Notes under the pieces: generated by a model | The model's database searches: none | What the model saw: the letters and a program-made list of their open reading frames with translations, nothing else | What the model was told of the DNA's origin: nothing | DNA from: Pseudomonadota bacterium | GTDB lineage: Bacteria > Bdellovibrionota > FAC87 > UBA2466 | Direction of reading: 5' to 3' | Assembly: GCA_043767805.1 (NCBI GenBank) | Contig: JAYUGC010000065.1 | Span: forward strand, 1 to 35,162 | Length of the DNA stretch: 35,162 nt | Shown: in pieces, positions 9,544 to 35,162 of the stretch | Numbering within the stretch: the stretch's first letter is position 1 | Layout: each line of letters begins with the position of its first letter | Translations under genes and position numbers: made by a program

Positions 9544-10919
9544 GGAATCTGGGTGGCTTCGAGAAGCGAGAGACTGGGACTCAGTCCAGGCGAGCTTTGG
9601 TGCGCCTTGATCACGTTCTGGTAAACGCCGTAAGAAGGGCGCGGCGTACGGACGAAGGTCTGATAGTCGACGTGAACCAAACCGAAGCGAGGCTCGAAGC
9701 CTTTGATCCATTCGAAGTTATCGATGAGAGACCAGTGGTAATACCCACGAATGTCCGCGCCGGCTGAGCGGGCCCGGGCGATTTCTTTTAGGTGCTCGAC
9801 GAGATAGTGCGACCGGCGAGAGTCCGGCGCATCGGCGATGCCGTTCTCGGTAATGTAGAGCGGAAGCTTGTACCGGCTCAAGAAACGGATCATGCGGCCC
9901 AAGCCGCTGGGATAAATCGCCCACCCCAAGTCGCTCGTCTTGTCCTCGGGCTTTGAGAAAATGACGCCCACGGGAACCCGGCGCGTCCGCACGAACGACG
10001 CTTCCGCCGCTTGCGGTCCCCAGCAAACGTAAACGCGCATGTAGTAATTGATGCCGAGAAAATCGACGGTGGGCCGCCCGCGCGCTTCCCAGACGGGCTT
10101 GGGGTAAGGGACGAGTCCCAGCACGCCGAAATGTTGCTTGCGCCCAGTGACCGCGTCCGGCCAGGCCCGGTTGTAAAAGCGGCGAAACACGCTCGTCATC
10201 GCGCGCTCGATGGGATTACCCGGATGAGCCGCCTGAAAATCGATCATGTTGTGAGCAATGCCCACCTGGCGCGGCCAATCTTTCCAGGGACCCGTGCGAA
10301 GCACCGTGGACTTATGAATGCGATCGTAGGCAAGCACGTGCGCGCGGAGCAAGTTTCTCGACGTCAAAGCGCACTTCAACGGGTCGTACTCGGCGGGAGG
10401 CATGAAGCCCCCCAAGTACTGCCCCACCGCCATGCCGTTCGGCTCGTTCAACGTGCACCAGAGCGGAATGCGCCCGCCGATTTCTTTGAGCACGAAACGG
10501 GTGAAGCCCGCGAACTTATCGGGCGCCTGCTCCCAGGTGAACCCACCTTTTTCGGAAAGCCAGCGCGGAACCGTGAAGTGAAGGAGCGTCGCCATGGGCG
10601 CGAGCTTTCGCTTTTCACACTCGTTAATTAGCTCTCGGTACCACTCCATGGCCTCTTGGTTCCAAGCCCCCTGCTCGGGCTCCAAGCGAGACCATTCGAT
10701 GGAGAAACGATAACTGTTCAGGCCTAAGTCTTGGGCGAGGCGCAAGTCTTCCTCGTACCGATTCCAATGATCGGTAGCGGCGCCCGAGTGCGCGCCGCCT
10801 TCGATATTTCCTTGCTGCTCCCAATGCCACCAGTCGTTGTGGACATTGCCGCCTTCGATTTGATGACTGCTCGTAGCCGCGCCCCACAGAAAGGGAGCCG
10901 AGCCGGAAAATTCGGTCAC
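9540..10919 (-). CDS. Glycoside hydrolase family 1 (beta-glucosidase)
   Basis: FLWGAATSSHQIEG, YRFSIEWSRLEP, TLNEP (acid/base Glu), YITENG (nucleophile Glu), WSLIDNFEW, RFGL. GTG start overlaps the upstream stop. Confidence 0.95.
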   Translation of the reverse strand: MTEFSGSAPFLWGAATSSHQIEGGNVHNDWWHWEQQGNIEGGAHSGAATDHWNRYEEDLRLAQDLGLNSYRFSIEWSRLEPEQGAWNQEAMEWYRELINECEKRKLAPMATLLHFTVPRWLSEKGGFTWEQAPDKFAGFTRFVLKEIGGRIPLWCTLNEPNGMAVGQYLGGFMPPAEYDPLKCALTSRNLLRAHVLAYDRIHKSTVLRTGPWKDWPRQVGIAHNMIDFQAAHPGNPIERAMTSVFRRFYNRAWPDAVTGRKQHFGVLGLVPYPKPVWEARGRPTVDFLGINYYMRVYVCWGPQAAEASFVRTRRVPVGVIFSKPEDKTSDLGWAIYPSGLGRMIRFLSRYKLPLYITENGIADAPDSRRSHYLVEHLKEIARARSAGADIRGYYHWSLIDNFEWIKGFEPRFGLVHVDYQTFVRTPRPSYGVYQNVIKAHQSSPGLSPSLSLLEATQIP

Positions 10920-12061
10920 GCCAGAACGCCCCCAGGCAAAATCCTCAAGCGGCTCCCGCGCCAGTGAATGCGGTTACCGACGGCGATGTGGCACCAGAGG
11001 GGAAAAGCCAAAATTTCGCGTGCCGCCCAGCCAATCAAAGTCTGAAGAGTCGGGCGTACGTCGAGCGTCCCCAGCAAACAAAGATCCGCGGTCAGCCAAA
11101 CCAAGAGATGGGCCGAGAAAAAAGCCCAGGAGGAAACACCCTTCCATTCGTGGAGCGCGAAGGCGCCGATAAGACCCGAGAGCACCGCGCCGAACGCGGG
11201 CTCCAATAAGAACGCCCACGGCGCTTGCGCCTTGCGGATGCGTCCCCAGCGGATGTGCCGCGACCAGAAATCCTTGATGCCGTACACGCCGATGTGCTGG
11301 TGAATGGGATCGGAAGCGATCTCCACTTTGAGGCCCAATTTTTGAACGGCTTTTCCCGCCATGTAATCTTCGGCGACATAACGGCCGAGAGCGCGGATAC
11401 CGCCGATGCGATCGAACGTCCGGCGCCGAAAGAGCATGGACTTACCGACGACACAGGGATGGCCCGCCGCACTGGAGAGATGCATCCACCGGGTGTAAAA
11501 GCTATTCAAGTAAGCCGCTTCCAAGGTCCCGCCCACCCCTTTCGGCCCGTGCCCCGCCACGATGGCGGTCACGATACCGACATCGCTCCGCAGAAAGGGA
11601 ACGATCCGCCGCAAATAATCCGGCGCCACGCGCACATTGCTATCGCTAATGAGCCTCACGTCGTGCGCCGCCTCGTCGTAAGAAATCACCAAGTTGTTCA
11701 CCTTGGGATTTTGTCCGACGGCGACGCTACCCACGATGAGCCGCGCCTTTACCTTAGGGTACTCGGCCATGACCTGCTTTACTACCCGAACGGCGGGATC
11801 CTCGCCGTCACTGACGGAAAACAGGATCTCGTACTCGGGATAGTCGAGCTTGAAGAAGGATCGGATATTGGCCTCGAAGCCCTCGTCCTTGCCCTTAAAG
11901 GGTTTCAAAATCGAGACCGGCGGCGCGGGATCGGGTAAAGGCAGCACGCGCCAGGAGCGAAGAATGGCATACCACGTTCCCCACAGGGTGCTTCCGAGAG
12001 CGAAAGCCCACGTCAGAAGTGCGAGAGCGATGAGAGGACCAGCCGTATCGTCTAGCCACAC
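10916..12061 (-). CDS. Ceramide glucosyltransferase-like glycosyltransferase (GT21/GT2, HpnI-related)
   Basis: N-terminal TM helix, VSILKPFKGKD, NPKVNNL, ISDSN, CVVGKSMLFRR, AEDY, RHIRW ((Q/R)xxRW motif), C-terminal TM helices and IHWRG. Confidence 0.9.
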   Translation of the reverse strand: MWLDDTAGPLIALALLTWAFALGSTLWGTWYAILRSWRVLPLPDPAPPVSILKPFKGKDEGFEANIRSFFKLDYPEYEILFSVSDGEDPAVRVVKQVMAEYPKVKARLIVGSVAVGQNPKVNNLVISYDEAAHDVRLISDSNVRVAPDYLRRIVPFLRSDVGIVTAIVAGHGPKGVGGTLEAAYLNSFYTRWMHLSSAAGHPCVVGKSMLFRRRTFDRIGGIRALGRYVAEDYMAGKAVQKLGLKVEIASDPIHQHIGVYGIKDFWSRHIRWGRIRKAQAPWAFLLEPAFGAVLSGLIGAFALHEWKGVSSWAFFSAHLLVWLTADLCLLGTLDVRPTLQTLIGWAAREILAFPLWCHIAVGNRIHWRGSRLRILPGGVLA

Positions 12062-21435: not shown

Positions 21436-24159
21436 TCACTTCTCCAAAATACGGATTTCGCCTTTGCCCGCATCCACGCGAACGCGGTCGCCTGTTTTGA
21501 GACGAGTCATCAACCCGCCGGTGACACCGACGATGGTCGGAAGCCCGAGCTCTCTTGCCACCACCGCGGAATGAGACAAAAGACTTCCGCGCTCAATGAG
21601 AAGGCCAGAGCAAGACGGATAGAGCGGCACCCAACCTGGATCGGTACGGCCCGTAACTAAAATTTCCCCGTTCAAGCCTTCCGCGTCTTTCAGGTTCGAT
21701 ACCACGAGCACAACGCCTTCGACCACACCAGGACAGCAAGGCGTACCCGTGAGCACGTTGGGATCCGAGTTCACTTCGGTGGTTCGAAGCAAGTCGCCCT
21801 CGGCAAGTATCGCCGTGTAGCCCATGGAAGCGCCCGCGGCGCCAAAGGTGAGCAGCCGATCGGGAGGCGCCGGAGTGTCCTCGTAAATTAGATATTCCTT
21901 TTTGCGGATCCGTACGAGGCTCTTGATGTCGCCCGAGATACCACGGCCCTCGACGAAACCCACGATTTCTTCCACCGTGAGGAAGAAGATGTCGCGTTCG
22001 CCGTCCAGGAGATCCATGGCCGCGAGCTTCTTACCCATGGCGCGAAAGAGATGGCGGCACACGCCAAACACTTTCGTGCGGGCAAAGCGCAAGTTCTCGC
22101 GGTTCTTCACCGCGCGCCTAGCCTGAGTGAGGACCCAACTGTAAAGACTCCAGCGGAAGCCGGAAAGCTTCGCTCGCACTTTGGCCTCGGCGCCGCGGCG
22201 AATGCCCTGCTCCCGCTCTTCCATATTGCCGAACTCGTAGGAACCCGTACGCACGTAACTCGCGATGGAGTTGATGACGAACGTGGGATCGTCATGGAGA
22301 TCCGAAGCTTCCAGCTTCAACTCGTCCACGCAGCGGAATCCGTATTTGTCGAGGAACTCGAACAAGTCCTTCGTGAAAGCCGCGTCCTTCTTCGAGCCTT
22401 GGAGCTCTTTCCAAACCGCGTCGGAAGACATCGAGAGCATCCAGGACCGGAAACCAGGATCGCCCTTGTCCACGCGCGCTGCCATGCGCATCAAAAACTT
22501 CGTGGGCTCGGTGCTCTCCAGGCCTCCCTCACCGCATAGCAAATCGTTTTGCAGCGAATCGGCCGCCCCCTTACCTTCCACCCATTTCTCAGTGAGCTTC
22601 TTCAAAAGACCGAAGAAGAGCATGCAGAGGTAGTCGTTGATGATGGGCGCTTTCCACTGTTTCAAGAGCTGCTCGTCCAGATAGTGGTAATGATCGACGA
22701 GCCTCGGCAGTGACCAGGTGCTGTAATCGAGCTTGCGGGTCCCTTCGTAAACATCCACGAAGTGAGCATTGAACTCGCCGATGATCTTATCGATGTTTCT
22801 GAACCGATAAATCGTCTGGCTGAGGAGCCTTAAACGCGCCCGAAGGGAGTACTTCGGCGCTTCTTTCACGAAATCGAAGATGCCCGCCATTTCGGGCTTT
22901 ATCTGGGCTTTGACGCCCATCATGGTGTCCATGAAGCCTTTGTTGCTCGACGAGCCGGGAAGCATCAGCACCAGCTGGTACCAGTTCACGAGGTTGTAAT
23001 AGATGCGGCCGCGAATGAGCCCAAGCATGTTGCGAAACATTTTCGCGCGCGCGTCGACGAGTTCCTGAGGGACGCCCATCAGCTCGCAAAACTGCACGTA
23101 GACCTGATAATAGGCACGGCTCGCGAAGCTGAAGGTCAAAGGCGACGTCACGCCGCTGTAACTCTCGATGATGTTGGAATTGTCCCAAAGGGTGGGCGCG
23201 GTGCCGTTGATCGATTCCGAGTAAAAGCCCGAAGGCGGCAAGGACGTTACGGGACGGGTTTGAACCAAGTAGAGCTTTCCTGAGTCGAGTACCCATTCGG
23301 CGTCTTGGGGCGTGCCTAGCGACTCCTCGAGCTTTTCGCTCAGCTTCGCAATAGAGCTCACCTGTTCGTCGGAGAGGGAGCTTTGCAGCCCTTGCTCGAC
23401 GGTGAGAGCTTCCTTGACCACGCCACCTTCGCTCGCCTGGCGCATGGCGTGACTCTTCGTGACGACGCGTTTTTCGATTTTTCCCGTCCGACGGCTGATT
23501 TCGAAATCGTCGGACTCGAGCTCTCCGCTCACCAAACCTTCGCCGAGGCCCCACACGGAGCTGACCAGAACTTCATCGCGGTTCAAAACCTTGATGGGAT
23601 GACGAGAGAAGACCACGCCCGCAGCTTCCGCGTTGACCATTCTCTGGATGACCACGCCCACGCGAATGTCTTGCAAGCCGAGGCCGCGCTCCAGGCGATA
23701 GCTGAGCGCCCGCTCGGAAAAGCCGGAAGCCCAGCAACGTTTCAAAGATTCGGCGATTTGTTCCCACCCTTTTTGAAAGAGATAGGAGGAAAACTGTCCG
23801 GCGAAAGAGTTCTGCGCAGAATCCTCGTCGAGGCCGCTCGAGCGTACCGCCACGAAGGAATCTTCGAGACCGAGCGCTTTGAGCTTTCCAAAGATTTCCG
23901 CCTTCAACGAGTCCGAGATATTGCCTTTGAGGAACGCTGCTTCGACGCGGCGAGAAAGCTCGCCCAGATCCGCGGTGGGCTTCAAGACTTCCGCGAGATC
24001 GTTTTCCTGAACGAAGGCTTGCAACGCCTCGGAGGTCACCGCGAACCATTCCGGTACGGTAAAGCCCTTCTGAGAGAGGCGGCCAAGATTGGTGGCCTTA
24101 CCTCCGGCGAGAACCGACAGTTCCGTGATGGCCGAGCTTGATTCAAGAGTCCACTTCAT
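21436..24159 (-). CDS. PEP synthase / rifampicin phosphotransferase-architecture dikinase
   Basis: 907 aa. ATP-grasp domain (GGKA, AVRSSGLDEDSAQNSFAGQF, VQTRPVT), central substrate domain (WDNSNIIESYSGVTSPLT), C-terminal swivel phospho-His domain (TDPGW, GSLLSHSAVVARELGLP). Confidence 0.9.
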   Translation of the reverse strand: MKWTLESSSAITELSVLAGGKATNLGRLSQKGFTVPEWFAVTSEALQAFVQENDLAEVLKPTADLGELSRRVEAAFLKGNISDSLKAEIFGKLKALGLEDSFVAVRSSGLDEDSAQNSFAGQFSSYLFQKGWEQIAESLKRCWASGFSERALSYRLERGLGLQDIRVGVVIQRMVNAEAAGVVFSRHPIKVLNRDEVLVSSVWGLGEGLVSGELESDDFEISRRTGKIEKRVVTKSHAMRQASEGGVVKEALTVEQGLQSSLSDEQVSSIAKLSEKLEESLGTPQDAEWVLDSGKLYLVQTRPVTSLPPSGFYSESINGTAPTLWDNSNIIESYSGVTSPLTFSFASRAYYQVYVQFCELMGVPQELVDARAKMFRNMLGLIRGRIYYNLVNWYQLVLMLPGSSSNKGFMDTMMGVKAQIKPEMAGIFDFVKEAPKYSLRARLRLLSQTIYRFRNIDKIIGEFNAHFVDVYEGTRKLDYSTWSLPRLVDHYHYLDEQLLKQWKAPIINDYLCMLFFGLLKKLTEKWVEGKGAADSLQNDLLCGEGGLESTEPTKFLMRMAARVDKGDPGFRSWMLSMSSDAVWKELQGSKKDAAFTKDLFEFLDKYGFRCVDELKLEASDLHDDPTFVINSIASYVRTGSYEFGNMEEREQGIRRGAEAKVRAKLSGFRWSLYSWVLTQARRAVKNRENLRFARTKVFGVCRHLFRAMGKKLAAMDLLDGERDIFFLTVEEIVGFVEGRGISGDIKSLVRIRKKEYLIYEDTPAPPDRLLTFGAAGASMGYTAILAEGDLLRTTEVNSDPNVLTGTPCCPGVVEGVVLVVSNLKDAEGLNGEILVTGRTDPGWVPLYPSCSGLLIERGSLLSHSAVVARELGLPTIVGVTGGLMTRLKTGDRVRVDAGKGEIRILEK

Positions 24160-24986
24160 AACAACCCCACGAGGATGACGGACCAGATATGCACCAGGAG
24201 CGAGAGCGAAGCGACGCCCTCCACCGCCTTGTGCTTATCGACGAGCAGGAAAAGGAAAGAGAGAATCAAAAGCGCCGAGCAAGGCATCGTTAGAACGACC
24301 ACCCCTAAGAAGGCGGCGGCCCAAACGGAAATCACCGAGCAGATGCCGACGATCGCAAGGCATCCCGTGGAGCCATAGAGCGTCCGATAGTACCCAAGAA
24401 TCGGATTCGCCTTGGCGTCTAACTTACGGCAAACCTCATAGCTAAAGAAAGCGCCCAGCACGAGAAGCCCATAGAGAAAGCCGCGTCCCACGACATCTCC
24501 GCCACTCGCCGCCACGGGCAAGGCGCAAAGGGGAAGCAAAATAATTTGATGAGTGACGGCGTAAAGCAGCGGACGGTTTCCCAGCCAGCTGCCCACATAA
24601 AACTCTTTGAACATGAGCCAGAGATAACCCGTGATGAGAAGGTAGAGACCGGAGGCGGCCGGAGACAGCGGCGATAACAAAAGCCCGAAGGCCACCATGA
24701 AGAGTACCGAGCCGTTGATGACTCGGCCGACCGTATCCTTCTGCAAGAGCCCGCGAGGCAGCGGTCTTTCGGGATGCGCGACCAAATCCTTTTCGTAGTC
24801 TTTGTACTCGTCCATGAGACGAAGGACCGCGAAAAAGAGCATGAGTCCGAGGAAAGAAGCCCAGAACGGCAAACCAATGACTGGGACCCCCGCGAGACGC
24901 GTGCCCGAAGCGGCCATTCCCCCGACGAGAAGGACGTAAACCAAGATCGGAAATCGCTCTTTAAAGTAGGTTAGCCACGCGCCCAT
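24156..24986 (-). CDS. UbiA-superfamily membrane prenyltransferase-like protein
   Basis: 276 aa, about 8 TM helices. First acidic motif RLMDEYKDYEKD...HPERPLPRG; the second motif has diverged to YEVCRKLD. Confidence 0.85.
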   Translation of the reverse strand: MGAWLTYFKERFPILVYVLLVGGMAASGTRLAGVPVIGLPFWASFLGLMLFFAVLRLMDEYKDYEKDLVAHPERPLPRGLLQKDTVGRVINGSVLFMVAFGLLLSPLSPAASGLYLLITGYLWLMFKEFYVGSWLGNRPLLYAVTHQIILLPLCALPVAASGGDVVGRGFLYGLLVLGAFFSYEVCRKLDAKANPILGYYRTLYGSTGCLAIVGICSVISVWAAAFLGVVVLTMPCSALLILSFLFLLVDKHKAVEGVASLSLLVHIWSVILVGLL

Positions 24987-26377
24987 AAGGACCTCCTCGC
25001 GCTCTTTACCCGATCGATGCGCGCCCGGTGGCGGGGATCGCGGCGGATGACGACGTTAAGGACTTCGGAAACTCCCGGGATGCCTTCTCGAATGGCGGCC
25101 TCGCGTGCTTTCGCCTTTTGCACGAAAACGCGGATGCCCCGCTCGTCGCGCTCGATGAAGCCGGCGCTCGTTTTCAAGAGCGAATAGAGTTTCTGCTCAG
25201 TCAAAAAATCCGCGGTCGGCAGCTTTTCGCGGCCGGAGTACCACCAGCCGCCGTCCTTCTGCGTGATGCGGTCTCCCATGCGGTGCCAGATGGCGCCCGT
25301 GCTGTCTTGTCGTTTGTACTTCGCATTTTCCTCGTCGTTGCCGAGGTAGCGAGGACAAACATGGGGGCCGGAAACCCAGACCGTGTCGGGGGTGAGCTCG
25401 GAACGAATGGCGTCGATAGGCTTACCTAAGAACAAAGTTTGGAAAAATCCCGCCTCACGGCTCTTGGCTACCGCGACTCTCGCGTCGACCACGGCGACAG
25501 GCTCCACTTCGGTACTTCCATAAACGTGCTTCCAGCCCGCTTCGGGCCATTTCGCAAAGCCGCGCTCGAAAATCGCACAATCGGTCAGAGCGCCGCCCAC
25601 GTGAATGGAACGAAGGCTCGCCACCTTCGCGTGATCCATGAGCTTCATGAGAAAGGCGGGCCCACAGGTCATCGAGCGAGGCGTGAGCTCGCCACTCAGA
25701 CTATCCAGCGCCGCGAGATGCTCCGATTTCCATTTGGAAGGAAGGATTAGGCTCGGATTACCCGCCGCGAGATTGCTCAAAGCGAAATTGGCGAAGATGC
25801 AAACGTCGGCGCCGGGCTCGTGGGCTCCATGCAACACCGACTGCAAAATCGAGTGTTGATCGGAGAGATATTGATGAGTGCGGACCATTCCCTTGGGGCT
25901 ACCCGTCGTCCCAGAGGTAAAAGTGATAATCGCTGGGGCATCTCCGTCGACAGAGGTGATCTGCCAGCCGCCCGGCTCCGCCTTCAGAGAAGACGTCGAC
26001 ACCCAATGCGGAATGGCGCGAATGGAGGCGACTCGGGCGCCCCAAAGCCGGCCGATGCCACTCGTCAAAAATACTTTGGGCTTCACGAAGGGAAGGACGT
26101 GATTGATTTTTGCGACCGGCATCCAGGGCTCGACCAAAGCGGTGGCCGCTCCCAAGGACGCGATGGCGAGAATCGCGCCGTACATCCGGGGTCCCAGCGC
26201 ATCAAACATTAAGACGGTATCACCAGGGCCAACCCCAAGCCGCTCCATGTGCGCTCGCACGCCAGTCGCCATCCGGCCCATCTCACCAAAGGTGGTAACG
26301 CCACCGTCGGGTAGCCAGAGGGCGGCCGCCTTCGGCTTCTCCTCCGTTTGACGGACTATGAGCTCGGCCGCGTTCAT
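24971..26377 (-). CDS. AMP-binding (ANL superfamily) enzyme, OleC-like
   Basis: TFTSGTTGSPKG, VGGA, YGSTEVEP, WHRMGD, YSGR, C-terminal DPRHRARIDR. 468 aa. Confidence 0.85.
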   Translation of the reverse strand: MNAAELIVRQTEEKPKAAALWLPDGGVTTFGEMGRMATGVRAHMERLGVGPGDTVLMFDALGPRMYGAILAIASLGAATALVEPWMPVAKINHVLPFVKPKVFLTSGIGRLWGARVASIRAIPHWVSTSSLKAEPGGWQITSVDGDAPAIITFTSGTTGSPKGMVRTHQYLSDQHSILQSVLHGAHEPGADVCIFANFALSNLAAGNPSLILPSKWKSEHLAALDSLSGELTPRSMTCGPAFLMKLMDHAKVASLRSIHVGGALTDCAIFERGFAKWPEAGWKHVYGSTEVEPVAVVDARVAVAKSREAGFFQTLFLGKPIDAIRSELTPDTVWVSGPHVCPRYLGNDEENAKYKRQDSTGAIWHRMGDRITQKDGGWWYSGREKLPTADFLTEQKLYSLLKTSAGFIERDERGIRVFVQKAKAREAAIREGIPGVSEVLNVVIRRDPRHRARIDRVKSARRSLWARG

Positions 26378-27483
26378 CCCTGATACTCGTAAATGAAGGT
26401 ATAATAGATCTGAGTTTTTTCGGCGGACACCAACTCGGCGTACTTGGCCGTAACGTCTTTGTAGCCCGTCGAATCGGTGTTCTCCGGCACCCGGAGGTAG
26501 CAGCGCACCACCACCAGAGCCCCCGGGTTCAGCCCTTTGCCGAGCCGCTGTAAATAGACGCGGTCCTGGTGGATGGAGAAATAGGACGGCACGTCACTCA
26601 AAGAGACGAAATCGAATTTCTCCTTCGTTTCCTCAGCGACGCTCAGTAAATCCGCGTTGACCAGAGAGACGGGTATGCGGGCGAGGCAATCCTTCATCTC
26701 CTTATAGACCTCGGGCCGGGCTTCGTAAGTGTTAGCCTCGGGGTACCGGATCTTTCCGAGAAAAGAGAGCTGAAGAAAGAAGTTTTCCCGGCAGAGTCCT
26801 TGGTAAAAAAGGCGCCGATAAGCCTGGCGGTAATAATCAAAGTGCGTTTCGGGAACATTCTTCTTCGCCATATGACCTTTGTAGAGAAAGGCATTGAAGA
26901 AGGCAGCATTGCCGAACGCGCGAAGAACCAAGCGAGGAAGCAGTAACCAGCGAGCGCTATGAAGCTTCTCGTCGAAATACTCCTTTTGCGCCTTCATGTC
27001 GGTGAAATCGAAAATCTCGTCGTACCTGTCGCCGATGAGCCGGCGGAGGAGCTTCGGCACGCCCGTAAAGGTCTTTTCCCATTTCCCTTCGTACAAGATG
27101 CCGTGCCAGTTCAGCGAATCGTATAGGACCTCGAAATATTCGCGGGTCGCGCCATCCAGCTTGAACTTCGCGAAAGTCTCTTTGCGCCATTCGGCGTTCT
27201 CTTCCGTCTTGAAAGGCGGAAAGCCCCAGTACATGAGGTACTCTTCGTGGCTCAAAGCCTCGATGGCCGCCCGTTTGTGGCTCGTCAAAAGCAGTTGCTG
27301 TCCGGAGAGGTCCGCGCACACCAGCTCCTCCAGGGTTCCCCCCAGCAGCGGGAGACTGCGGCCGCCGCTGCCGCAAACGGCGAGGACTCGCTTCGGAAGC
27401 CTCTCTTTTACGAGAGTGTACTCCAAGGCCGTATCTTCGTTCGCCAGCGTGTAATTGAGCTTTGAGAAATATTGCTTAGACAT
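26374..27483 (-). CDS. DUF3419/BtaA-family SAM-dependent (aminocarboxypropyl) transferase
   Basis: LNYTLANED, VLAVCGSGG, ADLSGQQL, YEGKWEK, ENFF, FDFVSLSDVPSY, LNPGALVVVR. 369 aa. Confidence 0.8.
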   Translation of the reverse strand: MSKQYFSKLNYTLANEDTALEYTLVKERLPKRVLAVCGSGGRSLPLLGGTLEELVCADLSGQQLLLTSHKRAAIEALSHEEYLMYWGFPPFKTEENAEWRKETFAKFKLDGATREYFEVLYDSLNWHGILYEGKWEKTFTGVPKLLRRLIGDRYDEIFDFTDMKAQKEYFDEKLHSARWLLLPRLVLRAFGNAAFFNAFLYKGHMAKKNVPETHFDYYRQAYRRLFYQGLCRENFFLQLSFLGKIRYPEANTYEARPEVYKEMKDCLARIPVSLVNADLLSVAEETKEKFDFVSLSDVPSYFSIHQDRVYLQRLGKGLNPGALVVVRCYLRVPENTDSTGYKDVTAKYAELVSAEKTQIYYTFIYEYQG

Positions 27484-29563
27484 TTTCTCTCCCTGAGCCC
27501 GAAGGCTTCCAGCTTTTTAACGCTTCCAAGGCATGTTCCCGGCAGAGCGCGATCTCCTGATCGGTGATGATGCCGGCGGGGCCGCGAATGGCCGCCAGCT
27601 CGGCTCCGTGCCGCTTGGCGATATCGTAAATCTCTCGCACGCGCTCGAAGCTGATGTTGCGAGACAGGGTGAATGATTCGTAGCGGCCTTCCAGGGCGAG
27701 AAGCGCCGTCTCGGCGAGACAGGCGTAAACCACGGATTCCTCGAGCCCGATGTCGCAATTCATCTCGACCGTGCCCGGAAGCATCACTTCGCCGCTCTCG
27801 ATGACGAGCACGTCGGGACGCTCGGCCACCTGAGCCGCAGAATAAGTCAGCGGCCGGGAAACGTCGGAAATCACGCAACCCGGCTTCACGGATTTCAGAT
27901 CCATGACTTTTCCATCGAGAGAGCTCGTCGACAAAATAATGAGATCGCACTCTCCGGCGTATCTATCGGGGTTCGTCCCAATTTCAATTCGGCAGTGAGG
28001 ATTTAGCCTTTGAAACTCTTCGCGAAGGTCCATGAGCTTGCTGCTCGTCAGGGAAACCAGAATGAGTCGCTTCACCACCGCGGTCAAAAGCTTCGCGGAT
28101 ACCTTACCTATGCTGCCCGTCGCGCCAACCACCATCGCCGTGCCCTCTAAACGGGGCGTTTGAAAGCTATAGGGAGCGATGAAGCCGAGCTTCTCCACCG
28201 CGACTCGGGCGGCCCAGAGCGCGGCGGAAGCCGAAAGGGAGTTTCCCGTCGTTACCGGAATGGGGCTTAGCGAAGCCACCGTCACTCCGGCATCTCCGAC
28301 CACTTTAGTAAAGGCGCCGAGCCCGATGATGTCGGCGCCATCTCTCGCGGCCTGCTCGGCGACTTTCACGAGTTTGTCGTAAACGACTTGGGGCTTGGCC
28401 CGCAGCATCTCTCTCGGCGTGTCGAAAAGCGTATAGATAAGTCCTTCCACGCGAGTGCCATCGTGCCGGCTCGTGATGCCGCGGATGGTGCCGTACCGCA
28501 TGCCCGGGAGATGAGATAGGCCACGCTCCAGAGGCCTCTCGAATAACTTAGCCACCCCTTGCAGAGGACGAAGGGCCGGGTGACGAAATAAATCACGGAC
28601 GCTCAAAGGATGAATGATGAAAGCGAACTTCCTCACCGCCCGGTACTCGCCTTGGGAGACGTTTCTGAGCTCGGCCTTGAGTCCCTTTTCATTGATGAAA
28701 GAGAGTACGTCGTCCTCGTCGAGAGGAAGGCTGCGGTTCTGGGTCACCTGAATGAGAGCTTCGAGCACGCCGTAACGAAGGCCGCTCGTCACATTCACGC
28801 CCGGAATGCGAGGCACGATCTGAATGATGTCTTTCACCTTGGCGCTTCTAAGCTGCGTTTCCAAAGCATGGGAGAGCGAATCGACAATGACGGTGCGGCC
28901 TTTAAAGACCCGGCTATCGACTCGTTCCAATACCGTCGATGAGCCGACGATGAAATCGCTGCGGCTCGCTTCTTTCGCTCTACGAGAAAACGGAAGCAGG
29001 CGGAAATCAATGCTCGTCGGCAAAGAGCTGAGCGGCACGCGCTTTAAGAACGGCAGTAACCGCTTCGTATAAGCATTCAGCTCATCCATACCCTTCAAAA
29101 TGATGGGAAGATGCAGATGATAAAAGGCGTCGGCGAAGTAAAGCCTGTCCGTGTACTGGGCGATGACGTTGACCAGCTCCTGATCGACCAAGCCCGAGGC
29201 AAACGCGACCTTTCGCCCCTCGAAGTTGATGCGCTTTTCCTTCACCTGATTCTGGATGGCCCAGGGGATGAAGACTTTGCGAAGCAAGAACCCGGAAGTG
29301 ACCGGCGTGTGCTGAGGGATCTGAAGATAGCGCTGGGAGTCGGGATGATAGTGGAGCTTTCGGCCCACCCGCACGGGAAGCTGCAAGCCGCCGACCGAAA
29401 TGACGTCGCATTTGCCGTCGTGCTGCTTCAAAAGCGCTTCCATCGTCTCGGCATCGAAATCGGCGCCGAACTGAGAGATGCGAACCTTTTCCCCGAAAAA
29501 ATCGACCACCGTGTCGTAATTGTTCCGGGACGAGGTAAAAAGAAGGCTGACGATATGTTTCAC
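27476..29563 (-). CDS. Acyl-ACP/CoA reductase-like (aldehyde-forming, AAR-like) protein with a large N-terminal extension
   Basis: GTG 29563 overlaps the upstream TGA; 695 aa. The C-terminal half has FAFIIHP, GLGAFTKVVG, TTGNSL, Rossmann VVGATGSIG, DVSRP and YACLAETALLALEGRYESFTLSR. Confidence 0.75.
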   Translation of the reverse strand: MKHIVSLLFTSSRNNYDTVVDFFGEKVRISQFGADFDAETMEALLKQHDGKCDVISVGGLQLPVRVGRKLHYHPDSQRYLQIPQHTPVTSGFLLRKVFIPWAIQNQVKEKRINFEGRKVAFASGLVDQELVNVIAQYTDRLYFADAFYHLHLPIILKGMDELNAYTKRLLPFLKRVPLSSLPTSIDFRLLPFSRRAKEASRSDFIVGSSTVLERVDSRVFKGRTVIVDSLSHALETQLRSAKVKDIIQIVPRIPGVNVTSGLRYGVLEALIQVTQNRSLPLDEDDVLSFINEKGLKAELRNVSQGEYRAVRKFAFIIHPLSVRDLFRHPALRPLQGVAKLFERPLERGLSHLPGMRYGTIRGITSRHDGTRVEGLIYTLFDTPREMLRAKPQVVYDKLVKVAEQAARDGADIIGLGAFTKVVGDAGVTVASLSPIPVTTGNSLSASAALWAARVAVEKLGFIAPYSFQTPRLEGTAMVVGATGSIGKVSAKLLTAVVKRLILVSLTSSKLMDLREEFQRLNPHCRIEIGTNPDRYAGECDLIILSTSSLDGKVMDLKSVKPGCVISDVSRPLTYSAAQVAERPDVLVIESGEVMLPGTVEMNCDIGLEESVVYACLAETALLALEGRYESFTLSRNISFERVREIYDIAKRHGAELAAIRGPAGIITDQEIALCREHALEALKSWKPSGSGRENV

Positions 29564-30609
29564 TTCGAGCCCCCCTTCATGAGATTTTCCAAGGCGTAGG
29601 CCATCAAACGGGGCGCATAGCTTTCGAAGTACGGCATTACAAACTTGGGTAAACGATGGGCGAAACGCTGGTTGTCGTACCGAACGCCGCAGTTCATGTA
29701 GAAAAGCGTTTGAGCGGGAATATCCAAACGGCCGGCAATCTTCTCGATCCACCGGTTGGAAGGAACGCTAAATAGCCGCACTTGATACCCGCAGGCTTCC
29801 AGCATCTCGCGAAGCACCGTCCGAATCGGGGCTCCGTGAGGATCGCCGGTCAGGTGAAACGTATGAAGGCCGGCATCATGAGGCCCCCCCATGAGCTCCG
29901 TCATCGCGCGCGCGGTGACATCGACCGGAACCATGTACAGCCGGGTGTGCTCGTTAAAGGGGAGGGTCAGCATCCGAGTCGCATTTACCCAACCGCGCGC
30001 GAAAGCCATCCGACTGAGAAGCCGAAGCAGATAGTAAGGCCCATCAATCTTCGGGATTATGCCCGTTTCACTATGGCCCACCAAAACGCCCAGCCGGTGC
30101 ACGACACGGGGAACACACGACTGCCAATCCCGGACGGAGCTTTCCGCGGCGAATTTCGTGGAGGCGTAAGCGTCGGGAAAGGTTTGCCCGACGTCGAACA
30201 TCTCTTCACCCAGGAGCCCGGAGTAATTGCCGGCCACGGCTATGGTGCTCGTGTAATGAAAAGCCTTCAGGCCGGGCATGAGCTCCGCGAAATGCAAAAC
30301 GTGATTCGTGCCAACGACATTACAAAGGTAGAGATCCTTGCGGCTCGCCTGCAGATCGTAGAGAGCGGCGGCGTGGACCACGCCCGTGGTCTCATAAAGG
30401 ACGCGCTGGCGAACCGAAGGATCTTCGATGACGTCGGGATTCAAGATGTCTCCGCCGACCCACTCCACGCCCGCGAGACCGAGAGCCCGCATCTTTTCGA
30501 GATTCTTGGGGCGGGCCAAGGCAAACACTTTTTCACCGCGAACGGACAACTGCCGGAGCAGCTCGGCTCCCAAAAAACCCGTACCTCCGGTGACGAACCA
30601 GCCGTTCAT
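29560..30609 (-). CDS. Extended SDR oxidoreductase (NAD_binding_4 / fatty acyl reductase N-domain-like)
   Basis: ATG 30609 (ATGA overlap). FVTGGTGFLG, HAAALYD, NVVGT, TSTIAVAG, YASTK, VGHSETG...KIDGPYY. 349 aa. Confidence 0.87.
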   Translation of the reverse strand: MNGWFVTGGTGFLGAELLRQLSVRGEKVFALARPKNLEKMRALGLAGVEWVGGDILNPDVIEDPSVRQRVLYETTGVVHAAALYDLQASRKDLYLCNVVGTNHVLHFAELMPGLKAFHYTSTIAVAGNYSGLLGEEMFDVGQTFPDAYASTKFAAESSVRDWQSCVPRVVHRLGVLVGHSETGIIPKIDGPYYLLRLLSRMAFARGWVNATRMLTLPFNEHTRLYMVPVDVTARAMTELMGGPHDAGLHTFHLTGDPHGAPIRTVLREMLEACGYQVRLFSVPSNRWIEKIAGRLDIPAQTLFYMNCGVRYDNQRFAHRLPKFVMPYFESYAPRLMAYALENLMKGGSK

Positions 30610-31568
30610 TCGGGCACCGCCACGAACTCTTCCGGACGCTGAAAGCTCGGCAAGGAGAGGCGGAAGACTTTGAGCGCCCGGGGCAGAACGCGCACTTCGA
30701 GCTTTCGCCCTTGAGCGAGCAGCTCTCCGTCGCCGAAAAAGGTGAAATCCGGTCCGTCGACGAGCTCGATGTCGACCTGATCGGTCTCGAACGAGATGAC
30801 GCAAGGATCATGGTCCACCGGAAGGCCGCGCTTAACTCTCAGCACCGTGCCAATGAAGGACGTCCAATCGGAATGGGCGAAAATGGTGACGTTGAACTTA
30901 CCGTCGGAGTTGGAAGTCTCGGGCGCCACGGGAAAATCGCCGGCGATATAGGGCTGATTGTTGATGAGAAGAAGCGGAGTTACGACTTCGCCCTCGTACT
31001 GAGCCGAGCGGACTCTCACCCGATAGTGCCGATACTTGCGGGAGATGAGATGGGCGACGAGAGCGATGGTGTAAACGCGGTGATGCAAGGACTTCATGAG
31101 GGAACGAAAGCCGGGAATCTTTCCGCGCAAACTATTCACACTGAGAGCGACGTCACTAACCACTCCGATGCCGCCGTTGGTCGCCATATAGCGCCCGTTC
31201 ACGGAAATAAGATCGATACGATGCACCTCGTCCCGCCGCACGCATTCGAGAGCTTTCTTTAGCTTGGGAGTGATACCGAGCTCACGCGCGAGATCGTTTG
31301 CCGTGCCCGCGGGGACGACCAAAAAAGAGGTCTCGCTCTCCGCAAGGCTCTGGATCAAAGTATTGAAAGTCCCGTCGCCCCCGACGGAAATGATGACGTC
31401 GATCTTTTCGCGCGAGGCGCGCCGCAGCTCTTCCTTCATCAATTCGGGCGTCCCTGGGCTTACGAAGTCCACGTGACTGCGAAAAAGAAATTCGTGAATT
31501 TTCCCTTTCCAGTCATAAGCGCCGCTGGAAGAAGCGGCTCCATTTAAAAATACGCGAACCCTGTGCAT
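30606..31568 (-). CDS. Diacylglycerol/sphingosine kinase family lipid kinase
   Basis: FLNGAAS, VGGDGT, PAGTANDLAR, IDLISVNG, SDGKFNV, GDGE. 320 aa. Confidence 0.9.
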   Translation of the reverse strand: MHRVRVFLNGAASSSGAYDWKGKIHEFLFRSHVDFVSPGTPELMKEELRRASREKIDVIISVGGDGTFNTLIQSLAESETSFLVVPAGTANDLARELGITPKLKKALECVRRDEVHRIDLISVNGRYMATNGGIGVVSDVALSVNSLRGKIPGFRSLMKSLHHRVYTIALVAHLISRKYRHYRVRVRSAQYEGEVVTPLLLINNQPYIAGDFPVAPETSNSDGKFNVTIFAHSDWTSFIGTVLRVKRGLPVDHDPCVISFETDQVDIELVDGPDFTFFGDGELLAQGRKLEVRVLPRALKVFRLSLPSFQRPEEFVAVPE

Positions 31569-31574
31569 ATATCC

Positions 31575-32738
31575 TCAAAAAGAGAAGCTCACCTGCGAGG
31601 TGATTCGGCTCGTGTAGCCGAGAAGGGTCGTGGGAGAGCTTGGATCGTCGCCTAGCCACTCCCCGCCTGTTTTAACTTCCCAAGCCTCGCCGAGCTTCAA
31701 ACGCCCGGAGAGCTGAAACCAGTAGTCTCCCGACTTAAACCGGGACGAAGCTTTCCCTTCGATTTCAAACTTGTTGTTGAACAAGCCCTTGCGCGCCATG
31801 AGCGCCGCGCCTACCCGCGCGTCGCTTCCCAAAACGGCGAAGCGATCGAGAGAGACCTGAACGCCGAAAGTCAGATTCTCGAGGGACGCCGGCGTCCAAT
31901 CGAAACCGGCGTTCGCGGAGTAGGTCGTTTGGGTTGGGGTCGTCGTAAACGTCGCGTCCGAGACCGGATGGTCCTGAGTCAGAATGCCGTCCGCTCTCAG
32001 CACGATTTCCGAAAAGCCTCTGGAAAACGTGGCGCCATAGGAAAGCACGGGCCGGTAAACGGCGCTCAATGTGCCCGGAGCCCGCATTACGAAGGCGGGA
32101 AGCCGGTTCAAGTGCCGATAAGCAAACACGCTCGCGTTCGAATCGGCGAGAGTCTTGCTGACCCGAACCCCACCCTCGGGATAAGTGAAGAAATCGCCCG
32201 CGCTTAGATCATTTTGAATCGCAAGGCCCTTAATCGCCGCGGGAAGCCGCGGAATCTGGCCCTGGGGGCTAAGATAGGGGCTGACCTTGAAACTTCCCAC
32301 GGTGAAGAACCCGTTTAAGTTCCAAGCCGGCAAACGGTTCCTGCCGTGATCCAGGGCGCCGTAATCACGGAAATCGCGGGCGTTCAAGATATCGACCGCC
32401 TGATAACCGAACGTCTCGCTCCAGGTGATTTGCTGAGCGCCGGCCGAGATGCCCCACCGATCGCCCCAGTAGGAGGCGCGCAGAGTCTGCAACGTGACGC
32501 TCGTCTCAGTCATTTTGGCTTCCGCATGGCTCCCGTTGGAGAACGCCCTAACCAAGGATTGAAACTCGATCGGTGTCTTTTCCGCGGTTTGCTTGACCGA
32601 AAGCTCGTAGGCGATGCGATTCGTATCGAAGCGTCCCGTGTTTCGCACGCCGCTCTCATAAGAGATTTCGCTGCGCACCTCGGGTTCCGCTTGAGCCAGG
32701 CCGGCCCACAGGGCCGCTATGCAGAAAAACACCTTCAT
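31575..32738 (-). CDS. Outer-membrane beta-barrel protein
   Basis: Signal peptide MKVFFCIAALWAGLAQA, GAQQITW motif, alternating amphipathic strands, C-terminal VSFSF (BAM signal). 387 aa. Confidence 0.75.
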   Translation of the reverse strand: MKVFFCIAALWAGLAQAEPEVRSEISYESGVRNTGRFDTNRIAYELSVKQTAEKTPIEFQSLVRAFSNGSHAEAKMTETSVTLQTLRASYWGDRWGISAGAQQITWSETFGYQAVDILNARDFRDYGALDHGRNRLPAWNLNGFFTVGSFKVSPYLSPQGQIPRLPAAIKGLAIQNDLSAGDFFTYPEGGVRVSKTLADSNASVFAYRHLNRLPAFVMRAPGTLSAVYRPVLSYGATFSRGFSEIVLRADGILTQDHPVSDATFTTTPTQTTYSANAGFDWTPASLENLTFGVQVSLDRFAVLGSDARVGAALMARKGLFNNKFEIEGKASSRFKSGDYWFQLSGRLKLGEAWEVKTGGEWLGDDPSSPTTLLGYTSRITSQVSFSF

Positions 32739-33442
32739 TTGGACTGAAACCTCTCTAAGCTGAAGAGCGTGTCGGGGAAGGTCTTGATCTTCATGTCGGA
32801 GATGCGAATCTCGGATTTCTGATCGGCGCGCACCGCATCCGCGATGAGCAGAAGCGTGGGCCTGGATTTTCCCGCCATGGACATATAGTCCTTGAACTCA
32901 CCGCGCTTGAGCACTTTGCCGTCGACCGTTAGATACTCGGCGGTCAGCGGCTTGAAAGTCTTTTTCTCAACGACGGCCCGTATCTTTTCGTACGTGAGCC
33001 CTTTCTTTTTTGCCGTGAGAAGCAGCGTCCAGCTGGCCGCTTCGTCTTTCTCGATGACGCCGATGTAGTCTTCCGCCCAGCGCATGCGGCTGATATCGCC
33101 GTTCGCCGCTTCACCGGTGAGCTTTTGACTGAGCCCGACTCGCACCGCCCGTTTCAGGTTCGGCACGTAAGCCCACATATTCTCGTCGATCATCAGAAGA
33201 TCGCGCCCGACATCGCGCTTCGGAGCCATGGTCCGGATCAACGTCTTGTCGTTGCCCTTCAAGGAAACTTCAAAAACGTGGGTCTCGGTATCGCCAGAGT
33301 GGGTGGACTTCACCTCCACCGTCATCATGAAGGACTTGTCTGGGTTTCGGATGTCGTCCGCGTTTTTTAAAATAGTTTCAGGGGATGTCGTCGCGAAAGC
33401 GGACGCCACCCACAAAAGAAGTACAGGCCAAATTTTCGACAT
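32735..33442 (-). CDS. Outer membrane lipoprotein-sorting (LolA-like) periplasmic protein
   Basis: ATG 33442 after a purine-rich RBS, signal peptide, DENMWAYVPNLKRAVRV, QKLTGEAANGDI, YEKI, FPDTLF. 235 aa. Confidence 0.82.
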   Translation of the reverse strand: MSKIWPVLLLWVASAFATTSPETILKNADDIRNPDKSFMMTVEVKSTHSGDTETHVFEVSLKGNDKTLIRTMAPKRDVGRDLLMIDENMWAYVPNLKRAVRVGLSQKLTGEAANGDISRMRWAEDYIGVIEKDEAASWTLLLTAKKKGLTYEKIRAVVEKKTFKPLTAEYLTVDGKVLKRGEFKDYMSMAGKSRPTLLLIADAVRADQKSEIRISDMKIKTFPDTLFSLERFQSK

Positions 33443-33456
33443 TCCTATCCCTTTCC

Positions 33457-34677
33457 TCAAGTTGAGCGCAGCGCTTCTCCGATAGGCATCCGCGTGACTT
33501 TGTAAGCCGCGAGGAACGTACCGATGAGCGCGCACATGGATCCCAGCAAAAACGTTTCGAGGCCATTGAAGGCCTGGAGCTCGACGAGCACGTGATATTG
33601 ACGAGTCAGCCCCGGGCTCGGCGGCATTAATATCCCATTCGCCATCAGGGTGGCGTTGGCGAGGTAAGCGACCGCGAGGCCGAAGAGGGCGCCCCCCATG
33701 CCGAGCAAAGCGCCTTCCGTGAGAAAGAGCGCCATGACGTCACGCGCGGACTCTCCATTGGCTCTCAAGTTACCGACTTCCTGCTTGCGCTCGAGAATGC
33801 CGGTAGAGACCGTATTGAAGATGCCGAGAATGACGATGAAAAGAATGACGAGACGAATGACCCGAAACTGCGAGCCAAGCCAGTCCACCGCGTTCTGGTA
33901 GTACACCTTGTCCAGCACCGCGAAGGCGACCGCTTCGAGTCCCGAGCCCTGAGGCGCAAGCGTCGAAGCGACCCGTTCCCAGTCTTTCAAATCTTTGAGG
34001 CCGACGGCGATACTCTCGACCTTCGCGGTATCGAGAAGCTTTTGAGCGACAGTCAGAGGCAAACGGAAGACGCGATCGTCGAACTCCTTCGCGCCGGTGT
34101 GAAAAATGCCGACGACCGTGAGATCGGCGCCGTTGATGCTGCCGTAGATGGTGTTCGCGAGCACCGTGACCCGGTCTCCGACTTTAAGGCGTAACGAGCG
34201 CGCGAGGCCCTGGCCCATCAAAATGCCTTCCGGCTGATCGGTCAGAGGCTTTCCCTCCTCGATATTCAAAGCCGTAAAGAAATCCGCTTCCGCCGTGCCG
34301 TCGATGCCCTGCCCGCGGCCGCTCAGAGTGATGGAGCCATTCGTAAGGAGCGAATAGAACTCGAGCCGGGGAAAAACGTGAGTCACCCCTTCGGTCGCCC
34401 GGATCTTCGCCATCAAGGGCTCGGGGTTTTCTATCCAATGTTCCCAGGGCTTTTCGAAAACCTGGCCGCGATAACCTTCGGTATTGATCTGCCCGTGGCC
34501 AAAACGAGAACGAATGGTGTTTTCGCGGTACTGGTTCATGATGCCGGTGTTAAAACCATTAAAGGTGAAGAGCGCACCCGTTCCCACGGCCACCGTCAGC
34601 GCGACGGCCATCGTACGGCGATAATTGCGGAAGCAATTTCTAAGGGCGAGAGAAAGCAGCAAGCGGAAGTTACTCAT
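33457..34677 (-). CDS. ABC transporter permease, FtsX/MacB/LolE family
   Basis: LALRNCFRNYRRT, TM1, large periplasmic domain (LARSLRLKVGDRV), ERKQEVGNLRANG, 3 C-terminal TM helices. 406 aa. Confidence 0.9.
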   Translation of the reverse strand: MSNFRLLLSLALRNCFRNYRRTMAVALTVAVGTGALFTFNGFNTGIMNQYRENTIRSRFGHGQINTEGYRGQVFEKPWEHWIENPEPLMAKIRATEGVTHVFPRLEFYSLLTNGSITLSGRGQGIDGTAEADFFTALNIEEGKPLTDQPEGILMGQGLARSLRLKVGDRVTVLANTIYGSINGADLTVVGIFHTGAKEFDDRVFRLPLTVAQKLLDTAKVESIAVGLKDLKDWERVASTLAPQGSGLEAVAFAVLDKVYYQNAVDWLGSQFRVIRLVILFIVILGIFNTVSTGILERKQEVGNLRANGESARDVMALFLTEGALLGMGGALFGLAVAYLANATLMANGILMPPSPGLTRQYHVLVELQAFNGLETFLLGSMCALIGTFLAAYKVTRMPIGEALRST

Positions 34678-35162
34678 CGCGCTTCCTCCTTTTCGATAAT
34701 GCCATCTTTCATGCGCACGATACGAGAGGCATATCCAAGCGCCATGGGATCGTGGCTAGCGAGGAGGACCGTGCCTCCTGCCGTGACGAGACGCGAGAAA
34801 ATTTCCATAATTTCTTTGCCGGTCTTTTGATCGAGACTCGCCGTGGGCTCGTCCGCGAGGATGACCCGCGGGGATTTTGCCAAGGCGCGCGCGACGGCGA
34901 CTCGTTGGCGCTGGCCGCCGCTCATCTCGAGGGGCCGCTTCTCCGCGTGGGATTTTAGGCCCACGCTGTCGAGCGCCGAGTGCACGCGCGACTCACGCTC
35001 CTCCGCCGTGAGGAATTGATGCTTCAAAAAGTATTCGACGTTCTCATATGCGGTCATCGTCTCGAAGAGATGAAAATGCTGGAAGACGAAACCTAAATCG
35101 AAGCGGCGCAGCTTATTCTTTTCGCCCTCATTGAGCCCTTTGAGTGAGCGCCCCTGATAGAG
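34674..35162 (-). CDS. ABC transporter ATP-binding protein, LolD/MacB-like (5' end outside the window)
   Basis: The frame is open from the window edge: LYQGRSL...GFVFQHFHLFETMTAYENV, MSGGQRQRVAVARAL, ILADEPTASLD, SHD. Confidence 0.92.
   Translation of the reverse strand, partial: LYQGRSLKGLNEGEKNKLRRFDLGFVFQHFHLFETMTAYENVEYFLKHQFLTAEERESRVHSALDSVGLKSHAEKRPLEMSGGQRQRVAVARALAKSPRVILADEPTASLDQKTGKEIMEIFSRLVTAGGTVLLASHDPMALGYASRIVRMKDGIIEKEEAR

Follow-up and report, generated by a model that had tools for sequence, protein, structure and literature searches.

In the cyanobacterial acyl-ACP reductase (AAR), a catalytic Cys carries the acyl group, and for PigE there is evidence of reduction of a thioester to an aldehyde that is handed to a partner enzyme, with the purified protein being weakly active (both from the available part of PMC8341465). 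In the two-domain reductases of the AcrB/MA-ACR type, the N-terminal half reduces the aldehyde to the alcohol and the other half reduces the thioester, according to the accessible portion of PMC8492656. FcrA, which is derived from class I HMG-CoA reductase (HMGR), reduces fatty acyl-CoA to alcohol with NADPH, and its marks include Glu in place of Ser684 and a bulky residue where Leu862 would be (accessible sections of PMC11948995). The terminal amidation domain (TAD) of CarI has the same fold and Cys as AAR and is proposed, in the available part of its description (10.1101/2024.10.28.620694), to carry out amidation rather than reduction. Here we examine three adjoining genes for a soluble lipid kinase, a stand-alone short-chain dehydrogenase/reductase (SDR), and a 695-aa two-domain reductase (together, the trio), which lie in contig JAYUGC010000065.1 (assembly GCA_043767805.1) of a Pseudomonadota bacterium from the Bdellovibrionota lineage FAC87/UBA2466; the whole stretch analyzed, 35,162 nt, is termed the window. 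The system stands outside the AAR, PigE, and AcrB families by the tests applied and probably operates in the manner of a divided AcrB whose first step is taken by an AAR-fold enzyme. We propose that the trio makes an alkyl phosphate, which would pass to a downstream dikinase and UbiA-like enzyme, and assign this reading a probability of roughly 0.55.

Conservation of the gene trio

To describe its genomic setting, the trio was followed through 80 genome loci picked by the reductase, in which gene counts are lower bounds, many loci being cut. Most of these loci come from Bdellovibrionota groups, and carriers in culture are Bdellovibrio sp. HCB209, Bacteriovorax sp. BSW11_IV, and Oligoflexus tunisiensis Shr3. 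The SDR was found in at least 77 loci, the kinase in at least 74, a DUF3419 gene in at least 70, and the dikinase in at least 49. All three trio genes are present in 74 of the 80, and their order (kinase, SDR, reductase) is kept in 73 of these 74 while the neighbors rearrange, the exception being L017, where SDR and reductase are swapped. Six loci are short of one member; five of them end near the gene, and one (L005) has no kinase in the 1.3 kb upstream. The 4-nt overlaps by which an initial annotation of the window had joined the three genes are present, at 30606–30609 (ATGA, kinase/SDR) and 29560–29563 (GTGA, SDR/reductase), and stop codons allow such overlaps in 46 and 44 of the 74 trios, respectively. 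The grouping is not due to chance, and the trio is kept as a unit. Given this order, these stop codons, and the strict co-occurrence with the dikinase described below, it is very improbable that the three are merely co-transcribed neighbors with separate roles. No account of the trio or its cluster was found in the literature searched, most subscription papers and supplements lying outside its coverage; neither the Lipocone preprint nor a table of the cly cluster proved relevant.

Mechanically listed longer frames of 758 and 414 aa overshoot the real starts, because Met-1 is invariant in both alignments. The GC content of the trio is 0.573, against 0.579 genome-wide, and the reductase gives one match in its own genome.

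Fold and family relationships of the two-domain reductase

The motifs on which the initial annotation had based an AAR-like rear half were located at residues 438–441 (TTGN), 480–486 (GATGSIG), 614–618 (ACLAE), and 624–626 (LEG). The rear half does have the AAR fold with its catalytic Cys, but by sequence the reductase domain of PigE is closer than AAR. Against NCBIfam, the rear domain matched positions 1–357 of 837 of the PigE model NF053554 (E 2.1e-48), with 165 bits against a cut-off of 850, and the AAR model TIGR04058 (E 5e-13) with 49.1 bits against 449.7; it falls short of AAR membership by score, and of PigE membership both by score and by lacking the fusion to a class III aminotransferase. 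PigE again ranked closer among PDB sequences (4ppm, E 2.1e-30; 6jzq, E 4.8e-11). The reductase model (pLDDT 87.1) gave AAR 6jzq at Z 31.0 (rmsd 3.2, 325 residues aligned) and the carmabin TAD at Z 30.5, with the next row at Z 13.2, and Foldseek concurs. Cys615, which lines up with AAR Cys294 and PigE Cys296, and the Rossmann glycines Gly480, Gly483, and Gly486 are invariant in 59 of 59 aligned homologues, and A-C-x-A-E is kept in 81 of 81 and 80 of 80 homologues. The homologue search gave 3938 matches among 7999 scored candidates; the nearest named locus, from an uncultured Pseudobdellovibrionaceae, is 83% identical.

The window reductase shares the fold and the Cys294 equivalent with AAR (6jzq, 6jzu), but is about 25% identical to it and twice as long, and no aldehyde-deformylating oxygenase (ADO) is encoded in its genome. 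This absence had been noted for the window and extends to the 100%-complete genome, in which PF11266 has no match (a Synechococcus control scored above cut-off); an alkane pathway was rejected on this ground. Unlike PigE, the protein has no aminotransferase domain, carries a degenerate copy of the fold in front, and is partnered by an SDR. Neither an aminotransferase nor any amine-supplying partner was found among the 28 window proteins scanned, and an alkylamine or prodiginine pathway at the locus was likewise rejected, only the reductase half of PigE being matched. The CarI TAD (9e4s), the top structural match together with AAR for both halves, differs in its terminal position in a nonribosomal peptide synthetase (NRPS), its proposed amidation, and an identity of 14–17%. 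Taken together, the 695-aa protein very probably converts a thioester to an aldehyde: Cys615 would receive the acyl chain from acyl-ACP or acyl-CoA, and reduction with NAD(P)H would follow. Separately, plasmid searches with the reductase returned PigE-like fusions only, and AAR/PigE-type reductase domains joined to other N-terminal regions of 150–410 aa were seen in P0263, P0245, P0249, and P0260.

The N-terminal domain of about 300 aa, previously left unexplained, can be accounted for by structure, AAR being its best fold match, and still has no Pfam, NCBIfam, or PDB sequence match. Folded alone (pLDDT 90.8), it retrieved AAR 6jzq first (Z 12.5, rmsd 4.7, 252 aligned) and TAD 9e4s second (Z 11.8; Foldseek E 2e-7), with unrelated periplasmic-binding-protein folds at Z 10 or less. 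Comparison of front and rear profiles was weak (E 0.002–0.05, probability 1–15%) but colinear, and it places a non-Cys residue at the catalytic position of the front domain, which has 4 invariant columns versus 71 in the rear. By a moderate margin, the models indicate that the front domain is likely a degenerate duplicate of the AAR/PigE fold with a structural or docking role; it would serve the rear domain as a non-catalytic partner copy. Its profile retrieved 4 matches in a word-based search. The name "quinate 5-dehydrogenase," assigned automatically in the ESM Atlas (0.94) to clusters without a Pfam family, was not taken as a function. Stand-alone copies occur as Atlas clusters in Chloroflexota and Bacillota, and stand-alone front domains of 312–326 aa were seen in unrelated neighborhoods (L130:7887–8843, L131:7996–8976, and L132:7980–8918). 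Three genomes with a stand-alone front domain also carry the fused protein.

The SDR and the probable alcohol-forming step

The SDR had been likened to the N-terminal domain of two-domain acyl-CoA reductases, a likeness that was borne out: the motif VGHSETG..K.DGPYY is present and the gene does stand alone. The protein is an extended SDR (PF07993, 118 bits against a cut-off of 20.1, TGxxGxxG present), with catalytic residues Asn97, Ser121, Tyr148, and Lys152 found at 90% or more in 37 sequences. It matches the AcrB model NF005539 (see also PRK07201) over positions 3–354 of 657 only (E 1e-59); with one domain and 203 bits against a cut-off of 549, it lies outside AcrB/MA-ACR itself. What it lacks is the C-terminal, thioester-reducing half of MA-ACR, a step that the AAR-fold enzyme can supply, and its apparent substitute is the unrelated AAR-fold protein encoded by the adjoining gene. 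The SDR would then turn the aldehyde into the alcohol, like the MA-ACR domain to which it is homologous, with a two-step logic like that set out in the accessible portion of PMC8492656.

Distant two-domain relatives were collected with a 12-sequence alignment, giving 80 metagenome loci with a median length of 8.8 kb. An iron alcohol dehydrogenase is encoded in 24 of these, 23 times within about 200 nt; an SDR of the same type, ∼32% identical to the window SDR, lies directly upstream in 13; and a wax-ester synthase is found in 11, five of them within about 100 nt by longest-ORF (open reading frame) coordinates. At least one of the three is present in 45 loci and none in the other 35. The iron alcohol dehydrogenase and the SDR never occur together and fall in largely different clades, and some loci have an aldehyde dehydrogenase. 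In a quick tree of 29 rear domains, kinase-cluster copies separate from the distant copies, so the distant contexts represent related lineages rather than independent draws. These contexts support a reductase working with a swappable aldehyde reductase to give an alcohol, and a fatty alcohol is probably the product of the reductase and SDR pair. ORFs that appeared to overlap the distant reductases were dismissed as shadow frames of opposite-strand iron alcohol dehydrogenases. In three loci (L177:6439–13187, L179:4868–11187, and L210:6633–12946), genes for an aldehyde dehydrogenase, a wax-ester synthase, a two-domain AAR-like reductase, and a classical short-chain dehydrogenase are packed closely together.

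The SDR alone might instead reduce the thioester, while the AAR-fold protein uses its Cys for something else, for instance acyl transfer or amidation; alternatively, the aldehyde might be what is used downstream. In keeping with such roles are the TAD, with its shared fold, its Cys, and its proposed amidation; the resemblance of the SDR to NRPS reductase domains (TIGR01746, E 2.9e-24; best solved relative the MxaA thioester-reductase domain, E 2.7e-13); the retention of the SDR without a reductase in one genome (G166, see below); and the likeness of the dikinase to PigC. PigC activates an aldehyde. However, the SDR matches the N-terminal half of AcrB far better, no amine supplier is present in the window, and the distant loci place an iron alcohol dehydrogenase where the SDR would be, without a single co-occurrence, though the clades largely differ. 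We regard this division of roles as improbable.

FcrA-type proteins in the place of the trio

A survey of 301 genomes of the phylum found the dikinase (E 1e-100 or better) in 96 and matches to the reductase profile in 78. Two weak matches (G195 and G292) were set aside, and all 76 genomes with a strong match also encode the dikinase, G161 having the rear domain only. Five dikinase genomes without the reductase (G070, G272, G196, G242, and G113) encode an HMGR-like domain fused to an APH-type kinase, and this fusion adjoins the dikinase, DUF3419, and a GNAT-like gene. G054 and G055 encode the fusion as well, and on a Brevibacillus laterosporus record the cluster begins with an HMGR-like gene that is not fused. 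Of nine aligned HMGR-like proteins, eight have Glu at the human Ser684 site and all nine have Phe at the Leu862 site, the register being read from the alignments with numbering transferred by us; the HMG-binding Lys stretch aligns with a gap and varies. With two of three FcrA marks present, these proteins are predicted to be FcrA-type. Isoprenoid-supply genes, which the initial annotation had envisaged as a possible replacement for the module, are thus not what the HMGR-like genes appear to be. HMGR-like genes are absent from all 80 trio loci and from the window. The comparison was made at the locus level, genome-wide exclusivity of PF00368 being uninformative (226 of 301 genomes match).

FcrA-type proteins thus fill the corresponding slot in five genomes of the phylum and in the Brevibacillus cluster, and a common product is proposed. 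They are not homologous to the trio enzymes, having an unrelated fold and one enzyme for four electrons, and in the phylum's clusters are fused to the APH-type kinase. The best evidence for the proposed alkyl phosphate route is that a reductase of a fatty-alcohol-forming type, joined to a kinase, takes the place of the trio in these clusters.

Of the 20 dikinase genomes without the reductase, five carry the fusion and seven are taken up below; among the other eight, G177 is fragmented and 77% complete, G247 has no core cluster genes in the stretch fetched, and six have lower-scoring dikinases in other gene sets. Several features of these regions were recorded in passing. The FcrA-type/APH (ecdysteroid-kinase-like) fusion is ∼780 aa long (L114:5009–7354, L118:7033–9447, L152:8124–10460, and L153:9308–11593). 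In L114–L118, a second acyl-AMP ligase (with an acyl carrier protein in L118) lies near the fusion, followed by an AurF-like di-iron gene (annotated in L117 and L118), and L125–L127 hold a different dikinase–UbiA cluster with a P450, an epimerase-type SDR, ICMT/PEMT-like methyltransferases, an acyl-AMP ligase, and polyketide synthase-like genes. An HMGR match is absent from the window's own genome and from 33 genomes of its family. A 439-aa Brevibacillus membrane protein that resembles a phytol kinase by motifs only had no Pfam, NCBIfam, or PDB match and no alignment to the window kinase, and was not used as evidence.

The kinase and the proposed alkyl phosphate step

The window kinase belongs to PF00781 (77.5 bits against a cut-off of 23.6) and is below every NCBIfam cut-off, including that of TIGR00147 (YegS/Rv2252/BmrU; 107.8 bits against 118.65). 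Its best PDB sequence matches are DAGK, BmrU, and DgkB (E about 1e-13 to 1e-12). With YegS, DgkB, and BmrU it shares the PF00781 and PF19279 domains and the motifs GGDGT, GTAND, and GDGE, which are kept in 72–74 of 75 cluster kinases (GGDGT in 72); it would differ from them in acting on a fatty alcohol. This substrate is the weakest step of the proposal, because in one genus a related kinase accompanies a ceramidase-like gene and there is no reductase. The sequence of the kinase does not fix it, and a sphingoid base or glycerolipid could take its place. Sphingosine kinases belong to the DAGK family, and Bacteriovorax makes sphingolipids.

The initial annotation had suggested a path from acyl thioester through aldehyde and alcohol to alkyl phosphate. 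Reduction to the alcohol is upheld by homology, fold, catalytic residues, and the genes that replace or accompany the trio; for the phosphate step, the evidence is indirect, namely the reductase–kinase fusion in equivalent clusters. In this route the kinase would phosphorylate the alcohol, with all reactions, directions, and substrates being predicted from the genes, overlaps, folds, conserved residues, and contexts observed.

Several observations weigh against the route. Kinase, dikinase, DUF3419, and UbiA genes occur in none of the 80 distant loci, and without a kinase there these loci inform the alcohol step only. The TAD, tied with AAR in the model comparison, warns that the fold does not determine the chemistry, and the SDR, given its MxaA likeness, might use thioesters directly. 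The five fusion cases are drawn from only two genera, four of them belonging to one, and PF00368 matches a second time in five reductase-positive genomes. In one genus, six genomes have the downstream cluster but no reductase; a kinase was seen in five of these and a ceramidase-like gene was present in four. Finally, G166, which is 98% complete, has kinase, SDR, and DUF3419 in order with no AAR-like gene (L124:1335–4520). In an unrooted kinase tree of 43 rows the G166 kinase is nested among trio kinases, which fits a secondary loss of the reductase, and the kinase-only copies share one long branch.

These kinase-only copies bear on a second possibility, in which the reductase pair makes a fatty alcohol and the kinase acts on a diacyl-, monoacyl-, or monoalkylglycerol or a sphingoid base, with no free alkyl phosphate. 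The closest solved relatives of the kinase are diacylglycerol and lipid kinases, and its kinase-only variant adjoins a PF05875 ceramidase-like gene in three genomes, a fourth having a PF05875 gene at the equivalent place. We nevertheless consider this unlikely: the kinase stays with both reductases amid rearrangement (73 of 74 loci), the FcrA-type reductase is joined to a kinase unrelated to this one, the kinase-only group may reflect one event, and no acyltransferase is found among the annotated conserved neighbors. The ceramidase-like gene and DAGK-family kinase pairs themselves (L154:1196–2942, L156:624–2368, and L157:11261–13011) have as neighbors a large permease of the FtsX type and a P450 but no reductase, and possibly serve salvage of a host or prey lipid.

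It is less likely still that the module runs in the oxidative direction, salvaging lipids imported by the ABC/LolA-like system from alcohol through aldehyde to acyl-CoA. Transport genes in the same operon, aldehyde dehydrogenases at some distant loci, and the kinase-only variant, which would suit salvage of a ready-made alcohol, are consistent with it. Against this direction, the wax-ester synthases beside distant reductases use up alcohols, the replacing enzyme is of the FcrA type, reductive with NADPH in the accessible sections of PMC11948995, and the AAR and PigE homologues are reductive in the available part of PMC8341465.

The coordinates of the trio and its neighbors are collected in Table 1. 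All lie in one same-strand run, from the ABC transporter at the window end through to the GNAT gene, and the reductase and DUF3419 genes overlap by 8 nt.

Table 1. Coordinates and family matches of the trio and adjoining genes in the window
Feature	Position	Strand	Matches and remarks
Kinase, DAGK/YegS-family soluble lipid kinase, 320 aa, GGDGT, GTAND, and GDGE motifs	30606–31568	-	PF00781 E 8.8e-22; PF19279 E 2.9e-12
Stand-alone SDR, 349 aa	29560–30609	-	PF07993 E 4.8e-34
Two-domain reductase, 695 aa, GTG start	27476–29563	-	
Reductase front domain, aa 1–305	28649–29563	-	Likely degenerate AAR/PigE reductase fold; no conserved catalytic Cys or glycine-rich motif
Reductase rear domain, aa 306–695, AAR/PigE-type acyl-thioester reductase	27476–28648	-	GATGSIG and Cys615 (codon 27719–27721)
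DUF3419 (BtaA-like) protein, 369 aa, downstream	26374–27483	-	PF11899 E 3e-27
OleC-like AMP-forming acid ligase, 468 aa, downstream	24971–26377	-	PF00501 E 9.9e-29; NF006754 E 1.2e-39, below cut-off
UbiA-family membrane protein, 276 aa, first aspartate-rich motif	24156–24986	-	PF01040 E 7.7e-8, just below cut-off
Rifampin-phosphotransferase (RPH)/PigC-type dikinase, 907 aa	21436–24159	-	PF01326 and PF00391; NF004881 872 bits against cut-off 883
GNAT acyltransferase, 339 aa	20454–21473	-	PF00583 E 9.6e-9
Upstream transport genes: ABC ATPase (cut by window end), LolE/MacB-like permease, LolA-like protein	within 31575–35162	-	PF00005; PF12704 and PF02687; PF17131
387-aa protein upstream of kinase	within 31575–35162	-	No family match; porin-like by our own reading alone

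Neighboring genes and a possible end product

The first aspartate-rich motif of the UbiA-like protein is present in 43 of 45 cluster copies. A GNAT gene is found in 21 of the 80 trio loci and a formyltransferase-type gene in 34, and the downstream genes accompany either GNAT or the formyltransferase with a hydrolase-ligase. Homologues of the upstream transport genes occur in 10–15 of the 80. A 239-aa protein without a Pfam match (L073:3268–3987) adjoins the trio or DUF3419 in 9 of the 80 loci. DUF3419 contexts on plasmids were unrelated. About 8 kb from the cluster, a glycosyltransferase family 21 (ceramide glucosyltransferase-like) gene overlaps a GH1 glycosidase gene (window 9540–12061).

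BtaA transfers an aminocarboxypropyl group, and the donor required by UbiA enzymes is a diphosphate, usually an allylic one. DUF3419, the ligase, and GNAT would decorate the product. A speculative extension of the route is a fatty acid-based mimic of prenyl chemistry, in which an acyl (perhaps 2-enoyl) thioester would be taken to an alcohol, a monophosphate, and, by the dikinase, a diphosphate, which would be the alkyl donor for the UbiA-like enzyme in building an envelope lipid, ether- or C-alkylated, that has not been described. The analogy is with phytol kinase, phytyl-phosphate kinase, and UbiA-type transferases. Doubtful as this extension is, if it held, the doubled AAR-fold reductase with its swappable aldehyde reductase would be a further fatty-alcohol-forming system beside FarA, AcrB, and FcrA.

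Implications

The individual steps proposed for the trio are already known chemistry, which limits the surprise. If the alkyl phosphate route is correct, the entry step of a conserved cluster would be fixed, and the trio and the FcrA–kinase fusion would converge on a long-chain alkyl phosphate. The trio would add a reductase type, possibly using acyl-ACP, to those for fatty-alcohol and wax formation, along with a candidate soluble fatty-alcohol kinase, and there would be a specific lipid to seek in the cultured trio carriers.

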